A DNA stretch of 64,000 bases from Escherichia coli (GTDB taxonomy: Bacteria; Pseudomonadota; Gammaproteobacteria; Enterobacterales; Enterobacteriaceae). Position 1 is the stretch's first letter, and each line of letters begins with the position of its first letter. Below are positions 56,896 to 64,000 of this stretch, piece after piece. Under the pieces are notes generated by a model that was given only the letters and a program-made list of their open reading frames with translations, searched no databases and was not told where the DNA came from. Where the stretch lies: the NCBI RefSeq assembly GCF_050920415.1, contig NZ_CP169309.1; one strand, given 5' to 3'. The translations under genes were made by a program, and so were the position numbers.

Positions 56896-57732
56896 ATGAA
56901 GAAAAATCGCGCTTTTTTGAAGTGGGCAGGGGGCAAGTATCCCCTGCTTGATGATATTAAACGGCATTTGCCCAAGGGCGAATGTCTGGTTGAGCCTTTT
57001 GTAGGTGCCGGGTCGGTGTTTCTCAACACCGACTTTTCTCGTTATATCCTTGCCGATATCAATAGCGACCTGATCAGTCTCTATAACATTGTGAAGATGC
57101 GTACTGATGAGTACGTACAGGCCGCACGCGAGCTGTTTGTTCCCGAAACAAATTGCGCCGAGGTTTACTATCAGTTCCGCGAAGAGTTCAACAAAAGCCA
57201 GGATCCGTTCCGTCGGGCGGTACTGTTTTTATATTTGAACCGCTACGGTTACAACGGCCTGTGTCGTTACAATCTGCGCGGTGAGTTTAACGTGCCGTTT
57301 GGCCGCTACAAAAAACCCTATTTCCCGGAAGCAGAGTTGTATCACTTCGCTGAAAAAGCGCAGAATGCCTTTTTCTATTGTGAGTCTTACGCCGATAGCA
57401 TGGCGCGCGCAGATGATGCATCCGTCGTCTATTGCGATCCGCCTTATGCGCCGCTGTCTGCGACCGCCAACTTTACGGCGTATCACACAAACAGTTTTAC
57501 GCTTGAACAACAAGCGCATCTGGCGGAGATCGCCGAAGGTCTGGTTGAGCGCCATATTCCAGTGCTGATCTCCAATCACGATACGATGTTAACGCGTGAG
57601 TGGTATCAGCGCGCAAAATTGCATGTCGTCAAAGTTCGACGCAGTATAAGCAGCAACGGCGGCACACGTAAAAAGGTGGACGAACTGCTGGCTTTGTACA
57701 AACCAGGAGTCGTTTCACCCGCGAAAAAATAA
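56896..57732 (+). CDS. dam: DNA adenine methyltransferase (GATC)
   Basis: 278-aa ORF; catalytic DPPY motif ([11 protein letters not shown]) and AdoMet-binding region. Confidence 0.96.
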
Positions 57733-57749
57733 TTCTCAAGGAGAAGCGG

Positions 57750-58427
57750 ATGAAACAGTATTTGATTGCCCCCTCAATTCTGTCGGCTGATTTTGCCCGC
57801 CTGGGTGAAGATACCGCAAAAGCCCTGGCAGCTGGCGCTGATGTCGTGCATTTTGACGTCATGGATAACCACTATGTTCCCAATCTGACGATTGGGCCGA
57901 TGGTGCTGAAATCTCTGCGTAATTATGGCATTACTGCCCCTATTGATGTGCATCTGATGGTGAAACCGGTCGATCGCATTGTGCCAGATTTCGCTGCCGC
58001 TGGTGCCAGCATCATAACCTTTCATCCAGAAGCCTCCGAGCATGTTGACCGCACGCTGCAACTGATTAAAGAAAATGGCTGTAAAGCGGGGCTGGTATTT
58101 AACCCGGCGACACCGCTGAGCTATCTGGATTACGTGATGGATAAGCTGGATGTGATCCTGCTGATGTCCGTCAACCCTGGTTTCGGCGGTCAGTCTTTCA
58201 TTCCTCAAACACTGGATAAACTGCGCGAAGTACGTCGTCGTATCGACGAGTCTGGCTTCGACATTCGACTGGAAGTGGACGGCGGCGTGAAGGTGAACAA
58301 CATTGGCGAAATCGCTGCGGCAGGTGCCGATATGTTCGTCGCTGGTTCGGCCATTTTCGATCAGCCAGACTACAAAAAGGTCATTGATGAAATGCGCAGT
58401 GAACTGGCAAAGGTAAGTCATGAATAA
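57750..58427 (+). CDS. rpe: Ribulose-phosphate 3-epimerase
   Basis: 225-aa [24 protein letters not shown].... Confidence 0.96.
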
Positions 58428-59178
58428 GTTTGAAGATATTCGCGGCGTCGCTTTTGATCTCGATGGTACGCTGGTGGACAGTGCTCCTGGTCTGGCTGCT
58501 GCGGTAGATATGGCGCTGTATGCGCTGGAGTTGCCCGTCGCAGGTGAAGAACGCGTTATTACCTGGATTGGTAATGGCGCAGATGTTCTGATGGAGCGTG
58601 CATTGACCTGGGCGCGTCAGGAACGTGCGACTCTGCGTAAAACAATGGGTAAACCGCCCGTTGATGACGACATTCCGGCAGAAGAACAGGTACGTATTCT
58701 GCGTAAACTGTTCGATCGCTACTATGGCGAGGTTGCCGAAGAGGGGACGTTTTTGTTCCCGCACGTTGCCGATACGCTTGGCGCATTGCAGGCAAAAGGC
58801 CTGCCGCTAGGTCTGGTCACCAACAAACCGACGCCGTTCGTCGCGCCACTGCTCGAAGCCTTAGATATCGCAAAATACTTTAGCGTGGTCATTGGCGGCG
58901 ATGATGTGCAAAACAAAAAACCGCATCCGGACCCACTGTTACTGGTGGCTGAGCGGATGGGCATTGCCCCACAACAGATGCTGTTTGTTGGCGACTCACG
59001 CAATGATATTCAGGCAGCAAAAGCAGCCGGTTGCCCTTCAGTTGGCTTAACCTACGGATATAACTACGGCGAGGCTATCGATCTTAGCCAGCCTGATGTA
59101 ATTTATCAGTCTATCAATGACCTTCTGCCCGCATTAGGGCTTCCGCATAGCGAAAATCAGGAATCGAAAAATGACTAA
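58420..59178 (+). CDS. gph: Phosphoglycolate phosphatase (HAD family)
   Basis: 252-aa ORF; HAD motif [11 protein letters not shown]; start overlaps the rpe 3' end by 8 nt. Confidence 0.95.
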
Positions 59179-60175
59179 GCCCATCGTTTTTAGTGGCGCA
59201 CAGCCCTCAGGTGAATTGACCATTGGTAACTACATGGGTGCGCTGCGTCAGTGGGTAAACATGCAGGATGACTACCATTGCATTTACTGTATCGTTGACC
59301 AACACGCGATCACCGTGCGCCAGGATGCACAGAAGCTGCGTAAAGCAACACTGGATACGCTGGCGTTGTATCTGGCTTGTGGTATCGATCCTGAGAAAAG
59401 CACCATTTTTGTTCAGTCCCACGTGCCGGAACATGCGCAGTTAGGCTGGGCACTGAACTGCTATACCTACTTCGGCGAACTGAGCCGCATGACGCAGTTT
59501 AAAGATAAATCTGCGCGTTATGCCGAGAATATCAACGCGGGTCTGTTTGATTATCCGGTGCTGATGGCGGCGGATATTCTACTGTATCAAACCAATCTGG
59601 TGCCGGTGGGTGAAGACCAGAAACAGCACCTGGAACTGAGCCGCGATATCGCTCAGCGTTTTAACGCGCTGTATGGCGATATTTTTAAAGTACCGGAGCC
59701 GTTTATTCCGAAATCTGGCGCGCGCGTAATGTCGCTGCTGGAGCCGACCAAGAAGATGTCCAAGTCTGACGATAACCGCAATAACGTTATCGGCCTGCTG
59801 GAAGATCCGAAATCGGTAGTGAAGAAAATCAAACGCGCGGTCACTGACTCCGACGAGCCGCCGGTAGTTCGCTACGATGTGCAGAATAAAGCGGGCGTTT
59901 CCAACCTGCTGGATATTCTTTCTGCGGTAACTGGCCAGAGTATCCCGGAACTGGAAAAACAGTTCGAAGGCAAGATGTATGGTCATCTGAAAGGCGAAGT
60001 GGCTGATGCCGTTTCCGGTATGCTGACTGAATTGCAGGAACGTTATCACCGTTTCCGCAACGATGAAGCCTTCCTGCAACAGGTGATGAAAGACGGCGCG
60101 GAAAAAGCCAGTGCACACGCTTCTCGTACGCTAAAAGCGGTGTACGAAGCGATTGGATTTGTGGCGAAGCCGTAA
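59171..60175 (+). CDS. trpS: Tryptophan--tRNA ligase
   Basis: 334-aa ORF; class I aaRS motifs (HIGN-type TIGNYMGA and KMSKS); start overlaps the gph 3' end. Confidence 0.96.
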
Positions 60176-60191
60176 TTTAACATTAATGCCA

Positions 60192-60217
60192 AAAACCGGG
60201 GGAACCCGGTTTTTTTA
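60192..60217 (+). terminator. Rho-independent terminator after trpS
   Basis: aaaaaccggg-ggaa-cccggttttttt. Confidence 0.7.
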
Positions 60218-60335
60218 TCCTCTTTTTGCAATAATCCGAAAAAATGTGAAGCGCCTCGCCATTTTCATATCTCACAGTTGCCACTTATCTTCAATTTAAT
60301 GAAGATATAAATATTCACTTTATTGAAAATTTACT

Positions 60336-61241
60336 ATGCGTCGAACGTTTATCAAAAAAGAAGGCGTCGTCATCACGACACTGGCCCGTTATTTGTTGGG
60401 TGAAAAGTGCGGTAATCGACTGAAAACCATAGATGAACTGGCAACTGAATGCCATTCATCGGTTGGTCTGACACAGGCCGCGTTGAAAACGCTGGAATCA
60501 AGCGGAGCGATACGGATAGAACGCCGTGGGCGCAATGGCAGTTATCTGGTGGAAATGGATAACAAAGCGCTGCTGAGTCATGTGGATATCAATAACGTTG
60601 TGTGTGCCATGCCTTTGCCCTATACCCGCTTGTACGAAGGTTTAGCAAGCGGGCTGAAAGCCCAGTTTGATGGCATTCCTTTTTACTATGCGCATATGCG
60701 CGGCGCGGATATTCGCGTGGAGTGTTTGCTTAACGGTGTCTATGACATGGCGGTGGTTTCCCGACTGGCGGCAGAAAGTTATCTCACGCAAAAAGGCTTA
60801 TGCCTCGCGCTGGAGTTGGGGCCGCATACCTACGTTGGTGAGCATCAGTTGATTTGCCGTAAAGGGGAGTCTGCAAAGGTGAAACGCGTGGGGCTGGATA
60901 ACCGTTCGGCGGATCAGAAAATTATGACCGATGTCTTTTTTGGCAGTAGCGATGTAGAACGTGTCGATCTCTCATATCACGAGAGTTTACAACGCATTGT
61001 TAAAGGCGATGTCGATGCGGTGATCTGGAATGTGGTAGCGGAGAGCGAACTGGCCATGCTGGGATTAGAAGCGATGCCACTGACGAACGATCTGCGATTT
61101 TTACAGGCTACTGAAGCCGTGATACTAACGCGTGCCGATGATTACCCAATGCAACAACTGCTGCGTGCAGTGGTTGATAAACAGGCCCTGCTTGCCCATC
61201 AACAACGAGTGGTGAGTGGGGAACAGGAACCCAGTTATTAA
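60336..61241 (+). CDS. yhfZ: Uncharacterized putative regulatory protein YhfZ
   Basis: 301-aa ORF at the syntenic position after trpS; N-terminal HTH-like segment; identity by synteny and remembered length. Confidence 0.75.
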   Translation: MRRTFIKKEGVVITTLARYLLGEKCGNRLKTIDELATECHSSVGLTQAALKTLESSGAIRIERRGRNGSYLVEMDNKALLSHVDINNVVCAMPLPYTRLYEGLASGLKAQFDGIPFYYAHMRGADIRVECLLNGVYDMAVVSRLAAESYLTQKGLCLALELGPHTYVGEHQLICRKGESAKVKRVGLDNRSADQKIMTDVFFGSSDVERVDLSYHESLQRIVKGDVDAVIWNVVAESELAMLGLEAMPLTNDLRFLQATEAVILTRADDYPMQQLLRAVVDKQALLAHQQRVVSGEQEPSY

Positions 61242-61257
61242 ATGAAAGGCATCTGAA

Positions 61258-61620
61258 ATGGAAACCAGACTCAACCTGCTTTGCGAGGCAGGCGTTATTG
61301 ATAAGGACATCTGCAAAGGCATGATGCAGGTCGTCAAGGTACTGGAAACCGAATGCCATTTGCCAGTGCGCAGCGAGCAAGGAATGATGGCGATGACACA
61401 TATGGCGAGCGCACTGATGCGCAGTCGCCGTGGTGAAGAAATAGAGCCGCTGGATAACGAATTGCTGGCAGAGCTGGCGCAATCCAGCCACTGGTCAGCC
61501 ATTTTACAATTGCATCAGGTGTTGTTGAAGGAATTCGCACTGGAAGTTAACCCGTGTGAAGAAGGCTATTTGCTGGCCAACCTTTATGGATTATGGATGG
61601 CTGCTAACGAAGAGGTTTGA
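61258..61620 (+). CDS. yhfY: Uncharacterized small protein YhfY (PRD-like)
   Basis: 120-aa ORF, syntenic. Confidence 0.7.
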   Translation: METRLNLLCEAGVIDKDICKGMMQVVKVLETECHLPVRSEQGMMAMTHMASALMRSRRGEEIEPLDNELLAELAQSSHWSAILQLHQVLLKEFALEVNPCEEGYLLANLYGLWMAANEEV

Positions 61621-61703
61621 GGCTCCCGACAAATCCACGTCGCACAACCTAAATATTCAAAAAAATGAATATTTAATTCAAGGAACAGAAACGAGGCAAC
61701 AAG

Positions 61704-62867
61704 ATGTTTGTAGAAGCATTGAAACGCCAGAACCCGGCACTGATTTCCGCCGCACTAAGATTGTGGCAACAGGGCAAGATCGCCCCGGACAGTTGGGTAA
61801 TCGACGTCGATCAGATACTGGAAAACGGTAAGCGGCTGATTGAGACGGCGCGGCTTTACGGCATTGAACTGTATCTGATGACCAAGCAGTTTGGTCGTAA
61901 TCCGTGGCTGGCAGAAAAACTGCTGGCGCTGGGTTACAGCGGCATTGTGGCGGTGGATTACAAAGAGGCACGAATCATGCGCCGCGCAGGTTTACCGGTG
62001 GCGCATCAGGGGCATCTGGTACAAATCCCTTGTCATCAGGTTGCTGACGCCGTTGAACAGGGCACCGACGTCATCACCGTGTTTACACTCGACAAAGCGC
62101 GGGAAGTTTCTGCGGCAGCGGTGACGGCCGGGCGGGTCCAGCCTGTGCTGCTCAAAGTTTATAGCGACGATGATTTTCTTTATCCGGGGCAGGAGAGCGG
62201 TTTTGCACAGCATTCGCTGCATGAGGTGGTTGCTGAAATCCAGAAACTACCGGGGTTACATTTAGCCGGATTAACCCATTTCCCTTGCCTGCTATGGGAT
62301 GAGGCTGCCGGGAAAGTTTTGCCAACACCGAACCTCCAGACGCTGGTCAATGCTCGTAACCAACTTCTGAAGTCTGGAGTTGTACTTGAGCAATTAAACG
62401 CGCCTTCAGCGACCAGCTGCACTTCGCTGCCATTACTGGCGGAATACGGTGTGACTCATGCCGAACCCGGCCATGCGCTGACGGGGACGATTCCGGCAAA
62501 CCAGCAGGGCGACCAACCTGAACGTATCGCCATGCTTTGGCTGAGCGAAATTTCCCATCACTTCCGTGGCGACAGCTACTGCTACGGCGGCGGTTATTAC
62601 CGTCGTGGTCACGCGCAACATGCGCTGGTGTTTACGCCAGAAAATCAAAGCATTACTGAAACATATCTCAAAGCCGTAGATGACAGCAGTATCGACTACA
62701 CCCTGCCGCTGGCAGGCGAGCATTCGGTAAGCAGTGCTGTGGTGCTCTGCTTTCGCACGCAGATTTTTGTCAGCCGTAGCGATGTGGTGCTGGTATCGGG
62801 TATTCAGCGCGGCGCGGCAGAAATTGTGGGGCGTTATGACAGCCTCGGTAACCCTCTGGAGGCGTAA
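61704..62867 (+). CDS. yhfX: Uncharacterized PLP-dependent alanine-racemase-fold protein YhfX
   Basis: 387-aa ORF, syntenic. Confidence 0.75.
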
Positions 62868-64000
62868 TGGCGCGATTTGTGGTGTTAGTGATTGATAGCT
62901 TTGGCGTAGGCGCAATGAAAGATGTCACGTTGGTGCGCCCACAGGATGCCGGGGCGAATACCTGTGGTCACATCCTGAGCCAGTTGCCGCATTTGCAGCT
63001 ACCAACGCTGGAGAAAATGGGGCTAATCAACGCATTAGGTTATGCGCCAGGCGATATGCAGCCGTCAGACTCCGCAACCTGGGGCGTGGCAGAGTTGCAA
63101 CATGAAGGTGGCGACACCTTTATGGGGCATCAGGAAATTTTAGGCACGCGCCCGTTACCGCCGCTGCGGATGCCCTTTCGCGATGTGATTGACCGTGTTG
63201 AACAGGCATTAGTCACCGCTGGCTGGCGGGTTGAGCGCCGTGGCGAAGAGTTGCAATTTCTGTGGATTAATCAGTCGGTTGCCATTGGCGATAACCTCGA
63301 GGCGGATTTAGGCCAGGTCTATAACATCACCGCCAATCTCTCTGCGATCTCTTTTGACGACGCAATCAAAATTGGTCGTATCGTGCGTGAGCAGGTACCG
63401 GTCGGTCGGGTCATTACATTTGGCGGCCTGTTAACCGACAGCCAGCGCATTCTCGATGCGGCTGAAAGTAAAGAAGGGCGCTTTATTGGCATAAATGCGC
63501 CGCGTTCTGGCGCTTATGACAATGGCTTCCAGGTCGTACATATGGGCTACGGCGTCGATGAAAAAGTGCAGGTGCCGCACCAACTGCATCAAGTGGGCGT
63601 GCCCACGGTGCTGGTGGGTAAGGTGGCAGATATCGTCAGCAATCCTTATGGCGTGAGCTGGCAAAACCTGGTGGATAGCCAGCGGATTATGGATGTCACC
63701 CTTGACGAATTTAACACGCATCAGACGGCGTTTATTTGCACCAATATCCAGGAAACCGACCTCGCTGGTCACGCAGAAGACGTCGCACGTTATGCCGAAC
63801 GTTTGCAGGTCGTTGACCGTAACCTTGTCCGGCTTGTTGAGGCGATGCAGCCAGATGATTGCCTGGTCGTGATGGCGGATCACGGTAACGATCCGACCAT
63901 TGGTCACAGCCACCATACCCGTGAAGTAGTGCCAGTGCTGGTTTATCAGCAAGGGCTGGTCCACACGCAACTCGGTGTGCGCACCACGCTTTCTGATGTG
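62867..64000 (+). CDS. yhfW: Phosphopentomutase-like metalloenzyme YhfW, N-terminal 378 codons (3' end outside the window)
   Basis: ATG at 62867 overlaps the yhfX stop (TAATG); frame open to the window end; [20 protein letters not shown]...; not in the ORF track because no stop lies in the window. Confidence 0.75.

Follow-up and report, generated by a model that had tools for sequence, protein, structure and literature searches.

What does the yhf gene cluster of Escherichia coli do? The question is raised by the last 3.7 kb of a 64,000-nucleotide stretch of E. coli DNA (contig NZ_CP169309.1; the whole stretch is referred to below as the window), where four co-directional open reading frames on the + strand, yhfZ, yhfY, yhfX and yhfW, lie 3' of trpS. 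An initial annotation had described them as a conserved but functionally uncharacterised operon, encoding a putative regulator, a small PRD-like protein, a pyridoxal 5'-phosphate (PLP)-dependent enzyme with a racemase fold and a phosphopentomutase-like metalloenzyme, and had proposed a role in amino-sugar or pentose-phosphate salvage. We found that the window shows the first half of an eight-gene unit, yhfZYXW-php-yhfUTS, and not a unit of four genes. This unit can be read as a catabolic regulon, repressor-controlled and probably also CRP-controlled, linked to the phosphotransferase system (PTS) and directed at a compound that carries both an amine and a sugar phosphate; it would be accessory to the organism and inducible by its substrate. 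We give this general reading about an even chance of being right, and any single step of the pathway outlined below much less.

The identities given to the four genes were all right, as both their coordinates and their domain matches agree. The window matches E. coli MFDS1022581 with 100% identity, and in the RefSeq annotation of that genome yhfZ, yhfY, yhfX and yhfW stand at identical positions; beyond the window end the cluster of this strain runs on as php-yhfU-yhfT-yhfS. The yhfW frame is free of stops over 378 codons from 62867 to base 64000, so that the window edge cuts the protein at residue 378 of 408; the full gene ends 93 nt past the window, which corresponds to window position 64093. 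The overlap of 1 nt between yhfX and yhfW (TAATG) noted earlier was read in the sequence (GCG-TAATG-GCG at 62862-62872), the yhfX stop codon TAA (62865-62867) sharing its final A with the yhfW ATG (62867-69), and a GGAGG is located 5 nt 5' of that ATG. The yhfZ-yhfY and yhfY-yhfX gaps measure 16 and 83 nt, and that between yhfX and yhfW -1 nt. The term operon holds in so far as the genes are co-directional and closely spaced, but the unit has eight genes, which are probably transcribed in two parts, yhfZY and yhfXW-php-yhfUTS.

In E. coli K-12 the orthologous genes are b3383-b3380, hence the locus is already known, as is its unexplained status. The complete K-12 cluster (yhfZ-yhfY-yhfX-yhfW-php-yhfU-yhfT-yhfS, b3383-b3376) has the same gene order, gene lengths and trpS-side neighbours; it differs in its longer trpS-yhfZ spacer (289 bp, compared to 160 bp in the window), in a DNA identity that is lower in the yhf genes (about 90-96%) than in the flanking dam, rpe, gph and trpS genes (96-99.8%), and in the presence of frlABCDR after yhfS. 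K-12 RefSeq uses 'putative' names for all eight genes (e.g. 'putative mutase YhfW', 'putative PLP-binding protein YhfX' and, for Php, 'putative hydrolase'). The Protein Data Bank (PDB) entries for YhfX (4KBX), the YhfZ C-domain (2OZZ) and YhfS (4J8L) were deposited as uncharacterized or hypothetical, and Php merely as 'phosphotriesterase homology protein'. A full-text search on gene names, family names and PDB codes, with most subscription journals outside its coverage, found no published substrate assignment for the yhf proteins; the matches for the yhf genes were screens, gene lists and genome notes only, and the papers on PTER and N-acetyltaurine made no mention of the bacterial cluster. 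The description of the genes as functionally uncharacterised and lacking an assigned substrate is in line with all three kinds of source.

Conservation was likewise borne out. At least 80% of the stretch is present in 5069 of the 5426 complete E. coli genomes, the majority of E. coli genomes being 90-95% identical to the window across the yhf region, and 343 of the 5426 (~6%) gave no match to the region, which marks the cluster as accessory and dispensable. Compared to K-12, all eight genes have equal length and contain no internal stops, the proteins are 92-100% identical across the cluster (YhfT 99.5%, YhfU 100%), and synonymous codon differences outnumber non-synonymous ones throughout (61:13 in yhfZ, 67:31 in yhfX and 46:23 in yhfW). 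This excess is far beyond chance, indicating that the eight genes are intact and under purifying selection. As a separate observation on 56896-64000, the low DNA identity of the yhf genes beside their more conserved neighbours suggests a divergent allele or recombination at an accessory locus. In a single E. coli record a protein of 498 aa (P0005) combines the YhfX domains with a YhfS-like C-domain; it looks like a deletion that fused yhfX to the end of yhfS, with loss of yhfW-php-yhfU-yhfT. The K-12 fructoselysine operon frlABCDR sits between yhfL and yhfS (locus L002, 3617-8935) and is absent from MFDS1022581, where yhfS is followed by yhfL and cysG (locus L001, 21571-22088); as neither the matching strain nor other genera have frl, a link between yhf and frl was ruled out.

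Candidate control elements were found in the spacers. The 64-kb window holds three copies of a 20-bp palindrome, ATnTTCA-N6-TGAAnAT (O1-O3, Table 1), where 0.56 are expected (scanned as ATMTTCA-N6-TGAAKAT with at most two mismatches), and all three lie in yhf spacers. In 87 related loci (1.61 Mb) a stricter form of the motif had 103 matches, of which 55 were found before yhfZ (in 41 loci), 29 before yhfX (in 29 loci) and 4 before yhfY; of the 10 others, several precede yhfU or an inserted sulfatase gene. The tandem arrangement of O1 and O2, with a phasing of 24 nt, is conserved in Escherichia, Citrobacter, Klebsiella and Trabulsiella. The pair is present once per E. coli genome according to BLAST, and as only the yhfZ promoter was matched, this search of all E. 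coli genomes yielded no further regulon members. YhfZ is the presumed repressor at O1-O3. A published operon table (PMC4448311) lists yhfX-yhfW-php-yhfU-yhfT-yhfS as a unit apart from yhfZY, which fits a second control point at O3.

Upstream of yhfZ we identified a putative promoter and a candidate CRP site. When the regions upstream of yhfZ from 17 Enterobacterales are aligned, both the TTG of the candidate -35 element and the TGTGA half of the CRP-like site are invariant, and the tandem pair of palindromes directly ahead of the start codon stands out as part of the same sharp footprint. A spacer of 17 nt would put the -10 element at GAAGAT in the right arm of O1 and the start point near 60314; with this start point the CRP-like site would lie near -61.5, a class I CRP position, and O1 and O2 would span the -10 element and the start. 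A consensus promoter and terminator scan, the counts of which were near those for shuffled sequence, did not call the TTGCCA; the same scan returned no terminator-like site on the + strand between yhfZ, yhfY, yhfX and yhfW, and it overlooked the intrinsic terminator of trpS as well. The latter was found by folding instead (a 10-bp stem in 60176-60225, -15.1 kcal/mol, z -2.7; trpS ends at 60175), and its hairpin is conserved in other Enterobacteriaceae. An Rfam scan of 59900-64000 gave one chance-level match and no riboswitch or leader RNA. In the trpS-yhfZ spacer (60176-60335 in the window) K-12 has about 130 bp of extra repeats resembling repetitive extragenic palindromic sequences or bacterial interspersed mosaic elements (BIMEs) before the shared terminator, and yhfZ is among the genes named as preceded by BIMEs in a published list (PMC2965389).

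Table 1. Genes and candidate control elements at the yhf end of the window.
Feature	Position	Strand	Description
trpS intrinsic terminator	60191..60216	+	AAAAACCGGG-GGAA-CCCGGTTTTT followed by a T-run; separates trpS from yhf
CRP-like site (candidate)	60245..60260	+	TGTGAagcgccTCGCC; TGTGA-N6-TCGCC, good left half, poor right half
Candidate -35 element	60278..60283	+	TTGCCA; putative promoter
Operator O1 (candidate)	60287..60306	+	ATCTTCA-N6-TGAAGAT, perfect palindrome
Operator O2 (candidate)	60311..60330	+	ATATTCA-N6-TGAAAAT; stops 5 nt short of the yhfZ start codon
yhfZ	60336-61241	+	301 aa; GntR-type winged-helix regulator with predicted ligand-binding C-domain
yhfY	61258-61620	+	120 aa; probable stand-alone single-PRD protein
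Operator O3 (candidate)	61653..61672	+	ATATTCA-N6-TGAATAT; yhfY-yhfX spacer
yhfX	61704-62867	+	387 aa; fold-type III PLP enzyme of the YhfX family
yhfW	62867-64000 (window edge)	+	Phosphopentomutase-like Mn-metalloenzyme of the alkaline-phosphatase superfamily

The first two proteins of the cluster would connect this control region to a ligand and, possibly, to the PTS. YhfZ matched the domains HTH_41 (4.5e-19, 68 bits) and YhfZ_C (8e-84, 281 bits) and scored 372.9 bits with the curated model NF041241 (cut-off 260), which makes it a member of that family; its residues 74-301 are matched by the C-domain structure 2OZZ. Distant matches of the family profile included a periplasmic amino-acid-binding protein (4I62, 2.4e-5) and the winged helix-turn-helix domains of CodY and FadR. 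YhfY scored 17.8 bits (E 0.004) with the Pfam domain PRD (PF00874), the gathering cut-off of which is 23 bits, and PRD was matched by 17 of 26 diverse members of the YhfY family (E <=0.01, best 6.2e-16). Thr47-His48 and Arg55 are invariant in all 26, and a Thr-His with an Arg seven residues on resembles the phosphorylatable-histidine motif of PRD domains. This gives YhfY a conserved candidate phosphorylatable histidine, His48.

For YhfX the question was whether the racemase fold implies a racemase. The protein matched Ala_racemase_N (PF01168; 7.8e-22, 78.5 bits, cut-off 24.1) and YhfX-like_C (PF21279; 4.4e-36), and it matched the K-12-type structure 4KBX at 5e-241. With alanine racemase and D-threonine aldolase it shares the N-terminal barrel and an invariant lysine (Lys61, conserved in 56 diverse members), which is probably the PLP lysine, but its C-domain is of a family of its own and its profile is equidistant from racemases and aldolases: the nearest solved relatives after YhfX itself were D-threonine aldolase (1.4e-7), alanine racemase (6e-6) and D-3-hydroxyaspartate aldolase (1e-4). 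The Pfam search found no Ala_racemase_C domain in YhfX, the ornithine racemase (Orr) model gave 29 bits with a cut-off of 480, and an hhalign comparison of the YhfX profile with E. coli Alr had a probability of 1.6%, so low that the position of the second catalytic base (Tyr) could not be read from it. Judged by its C-domain YhfX is not an alanine racemase; the fold was named correctly in the initial annotation, but a racemase reaction does not follow from it.

A similar picture emerged for YhfW, which belongs to the Metalloenzyme family (7e-53) and scored 728 bits with the YhfW-specific model NF009049 (cut-off 254). Aligned to the phosphopentomutase of Bacillus cereus (3M8W) it retains all of D10, T84, D298, H302, D338, H339 and H350, which align with the motifs DS, GxDT, D...GH, ADHGNDP and HTRE of that enzyme; Thr84 is the nucleophile and the other six residues are the metal ligands. 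YhfW has the same alkaline-phosphatase-type core as DeoB and the B. cereus enzyme, but it differs from them in its genomic context and in a divergent cap, the middle of the protein, which faces the substrate, giving a poor alignment of 29 bits. Its scores with the DeoB equivalog models TIGR01696 (141.9 bits, cut-off 341.2) and NF003766 (180.7 bits, cut-off 256) are both too low, and by this measure YhfW is not DeoB.

The partner proteins encoded beyond the window add a sugar-phosphate fold, a membrane protein, a second PLP enzyme and a hydrolase. The predicted model of YhfU (predicted local distance difference test score 96.5) matched the sugar-phosphate isomerases RpiB and LacAB in a fold search, with template modelling scores of 0.70-0.76, and its invariant Cys52 lies in a G-A-C-x-T-G motif similar to the catalytic CGTG motif of RpiB. 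YhfU was also considered as enzyme IIB (EIIB) of a PTS, which was ruled out as RpiB/LacAB were returned instead and no EIIB was among the top 50 fold matches. YhfT is a membrane protein without a solved structural relative; the idea that it is a missing EIIC, taken from the operon of Treponema socranskii, was dropped when a longer Treponema contig showed a canonical EIIC-GAT gene just past the end of the first contig. The best named relatives of YhfS were methionine gamma-lyase and O-succinylhomoserine sulfhydrylase, both gamma-family enzymes of Cys/Met metabolism. The nearest solved relatives of Php, after Php itself (1BF6/4LEF), were deposited as aryldialkylphosphatases and phosphotriesterases, which include lactonases of the SsoPox type. 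A Php-like gene of a mollicute was considered as the characterised phospho-furanose lactonase and rejected (63 bits, cut-off 630); it is Php-type at 202 bits. In domain and family-model searches none of the eight E. coli yhf proteins matched a PTS family, and with EIIA, EIIB and EIIC not recognisable in the E. coli cluster the yhf locus would not qualify as a PTS permease.

Whether these proteins work together was addressed by comparing loci across bacteria. The YhfX family is small: of 1.8 billion representatives searched, 186 clusters matched at E <=1e-30. With a 12-sequence YhfX alignment (a 56-sequence one was too divergent), scanning a single genome for each species gave 541 YhfX relatives, from which 80 loci were kept, and the eight families were mapped by phmmer on these and on a few further loci. 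The eight-gene set recurs in Enterobacterales, Vibrionaceae, Pasteurellaceae, Firmicutes, Leptotrichia, Treponema and a mollicute, and gene order is conserved within lineages. Among the 86 loci that hold YhfX, the other families were found as follows: YhfT in 78, Php in 76, YhfU in 70, YhfY in 68, YhfW in 66, YhfZ in 64 and YhfS in 63. The minimal core is U-T-X-W in Enterovibrio, Yersinia has a small core Y-X-W-U-T, and Photorhabdus and Xenorhabdus keep the cluster without yhfW. The conserved gene set of these 86 loci includes neither a kinase nor an aldolase. In the mollicute (a genome of 26% GC in which TGA encodes Trp) the cluster lacks YhfZ and YhfS, and its YhfW homologue continues at the C-terminus into a fused esterase domain (locus L005, 11161-13023). 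Several Vibrionaceae (L004, 12483-14666; L049; L050; L056) encode, after yhfW, a protein of 727-771 aa with a chitin-binding-type CBM_5_12 module, in which no catalytic domain was recognised.

The genes that accompany the cluster bear on its possible substrate. In Vibrio comitans a nagB gene, above the TIGR00502 equivalog cut-off, overlaps yhfW by 4 nt and is translationally coupled to it (locus L067), and in a distant metagenomic relative (locus L003) a nagB gene, again above this cut-off, follows yhfW after 17 nt. The V. comitans cluster also contains a sulfatase gene and that of its radical-SAM maturase, behind two copies of the motif. This cluster (2463-15160 of L067) is split into Z-P (P being php), sulfatase-maturase-unknown, Y-X-W-nagB and U-T; as the palindrome precedes yhfZ, the sulfatase gene and yhfU, the parts appear to form one regulon. 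In 8 Firmicute loci an amidase-like gene lies no more than 25 nt from the cluster. In Treponema a single tight operon encodes an Mga-type regulator, EIIA_2, HPr, Enzyme I, Y-U-T-P-S-X-W, a PTS IIB protein and EIIC-GAT. Orthologous EIIA, IIB and EIIC-GAT genes are located 5 kb upstream of the cluster in three Photorhabdus species and just downstream of it in the mollicute; in the loci compared PTS genes accompany the cluster in these three groups only.

Three lines of evidence connect these findings to the general reading given at the outset. The presence of two PLP enzymes in the cluster and the distant likeness of the YhfZ sensor to an amino-acid-binding protein point to amine chemistry. The catalytic residues of phosphopentomutase kept by YhfW, the RpiB/LacAB fold of YhfU, the nagB genes adjoining yhfW and the V. 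comitans sulfatase point to sugar-phosphate chemistry, and the PRD assignment of YhfY together with the PTS genes in the Treponema, Photorhabdus and mollicute loci points to a link with the PTS. Of the pathway guessed in the initial annotation, the amino-sugar half thereby gains some support (from nagB, the YhfU fold and the PTS links), and true pentose-phosphate salvage is the weaker half because YhfW fails the DeoB cut-offs.

The regulon could then work as follows. A YhfZ dimer would sit on the palindromes that overlap the yhfZ promoter and precede yhfX, and binding of an inducer to its amino-acid-binding-protein-like sensor domain would release it from the DNA; the TGTGA half-site, about 61 nt 5' of the likely start point, would add dependence on CRP, and YhfY, as a lone PRD with an invariant histidine, would couple the system to the PTS. 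The nutrient would have both a sugar or polyol phosphate and an amine like that of alpha-amino acids or amino sugars; candidates are an amino-sugar acid or amino-sugar lactone, or some other modified amino sugar. It might enter through YhfT, with the RpiB-like YhfU, and be phosphorylated via the PTS or by YhfW, the conserved set containing no kinase gene. Php could open a lactone or strip an acyl group, YhfX could use its PLP to epimerise the carbon that bears the amine, or to bring about a retro-aldol cleavage or an elimination there, YhfW could shift the phosphate and YhfS, where present, could deaminate or transaminate, the product entering central metabolism at or near glucosamine-6-phosphate/fructose-6-phosphate. 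A more specific version, in which YhfY, YhfU and YhfT form an unrecognised PTS-coupled uptake system that passes phosphate from HPr via His48 of YhfY and Cys52 of YhfU to a substrate carried by YhfT, would explain why enzymes for phosphorylated metabolites occur without a kinase in the conserved cluster; we regard it as distinctly unlikely.

Several observations weigh against the general reading. Each proposed step of the pathway is read from sequence, and the pairing of YhfZ with the palindrome is itself presumptive: in Yersinia (L034, L040, L046 and L071) and Enterovibrio (L061 and L062) the motif stands before yhfY, yhfX or yhfU with no yhfZ in the stretch examined, so that the regulator is encoded elsewhere or is not YhfZ. 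As the CRP pattern is not enriched in the 64-kb window (18 matches, 25.8 expected), the case for the CRP site is its phylogenetic footprint. The likeness of YhfS to gamma-family Cys/Met enzymes argues for homoserine- or methionine-like substrates rather than sugars, and the C-domain of YhfX, together with its weak alignment to alanine racemase, would allow more than one type of reaction. The nagB gene is close to the cluster in 2 and the sulfatase gene in 1 of the 86 YhfX-holding loci, and these genes may be lineage-specific add-ons. A canonical EIIC is also present in the Treponema operon, which clouds the role of YhfT and YhfU there. To these comes the lack of the region in the 343 E. coli genomes mentioned above.

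Some of these points would suit a pathway without sugars, for a modified D-, beta-hydroxy- or homoserine-type amino acid (e.g. a homoserine-lactone or an O-substituted homoserine derivative), in which Php would open the lactone, YhfS would catalyse a gamma-elimination, YhfX would racemise or cleave a D-beta-hydroxy-amino acid and YhfW would serve as phosphatase or phosphotransferase. Such a pathway would accommodate the relatives of YhfS, the nearness of the YhfX profile to D-threonine aldolase and D-3-hydroxyaspartate aldolase, the aryldialkylphosphatases and phosphotriesterases (and the SsoPox-type lactonases) around Php, the YhfZ sensor domain and the amidase-like gene inserted in the Firmicute clusters. 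It leaves unexplained, however, why YhfW keeps the full catalytic set of a phosphopentomutase, why YhfU has the RpiB fold and nagB is coupled to yhfW, and why a PRD protein and PTS genes of the ascorbate/galactitol type occur in the operon or its neighbourhood, and we consider it unlikely.

The salvage of pentose phosphates or nucleosides, with YhfW as a true phosphopentomutase (ribose-1-phosphate to ribose-5-phosphate) that is fed by the rest of the cluster, is very unlikely: not only does YhfW fail both DeoB models and align poorly in its middle part, but E. coli already has deoB, pentose salvage has no use for the two PLP enzymes, the Photorhabdus and Xenorhabdus clusters do without yhfW, and a nucleoside phosphorylase or kinase gene never co-occurs with the cluster in the loci compared. 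The RefSeq product name 'phosphopentomutase' for yhfW and its NF009049 score, the conserved catalytic residues and the resemblance of YhfU to ribose-5-phosphate isomerase B are what speak for it. That the cluster is a cryptic or decaying remnant, no longer useful to E. coli, would agree with its absence from some genomes, with its larger divergence from K-12 compared to trpS, gph, rpe and dam, and with the fact that no phenotype is on record in the literature found; we hold this to be highly improbable, given that the eight frames are intact in both strains compared and show a clear synonymous excess, that most complete genomes keep the stretch, that operators and catalytic residues are conserved and that different phyla have kept the cluster together.

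The amine- and sugar-phosphate-directed regulon that we favour can be compared to two known systems. One is the D-glucosaminate system dgaABCDEF of Salmonella, reportedly described by Miller et al. in J Bacteriol in 2013. There, PTS-type uptake yields a phosphorylated amino-sugar acid, which is deaminated to a keto-deoxy-sugar phosphate by the fold-type I PLP enzyme DgaE. The working logic proposed for yhf is similar, and weak matches to dga-related models were found for YhfS (TIGR03576, 21.7 bits, cut-off 304) and YhfY (TIGR03582 of the sister EF_0829 cluster, 4.6e-6, 27 bits, cut-off 69). However, yhf has neither a mannose-family PTS nor an aldolase, and it additionally has a fold-type III PLP enzyme, a phosphomutase, a hydrolase of the phosphotriesterase family and a membrane protein of its own. 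The other is the L-ascorbate regulon ula, with the PTS UlaABC and the lactonase UlaG. PTS genes of the ascorbate/galactitol type (EIIA_2, IIB and EIIC-GAT) are found in or beside the yhf-type clusters of Treponema, Photorhabdus and the mollicute, and the opening of a lactone-phosphate by a metal hydrolase would parallel UlaG; but the E. coli cluster has no EIIA, IIB or EIIC, Php is an amidohydrolase of the phosphotriesterase family and not of the metallo-beta-lactamase fold, and the yhf PLP enzymes have no counterpart in ula. By these comparisons yhf would work most like the PTS-linked pathways for amino-sugar acids or lactones, and it belongs to neither of the two systems, because the PTS permease, the aldolase and the enzyme families concerned are absent or far below their cut-offs.

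For the window itself the result re-identifies a catalogued orphan cluster, which ranks among the larger E. coli gene blocks that lack a function in spite of the solved structures of four of its proteins. The search for its substrate is narrowed by the minimal cores, by the operator, which is conserved, and by the accessory genes, which vary (nagB, sulfatase, amidase and the ascorbate/galactitol-type PTS); all of these provide experimental handles. Identification of that substrate, which could be a nutrient common to gut and marine bacteria of several phyla, would fill a gap in our knowledge of the bacterial genome that has been studied best.

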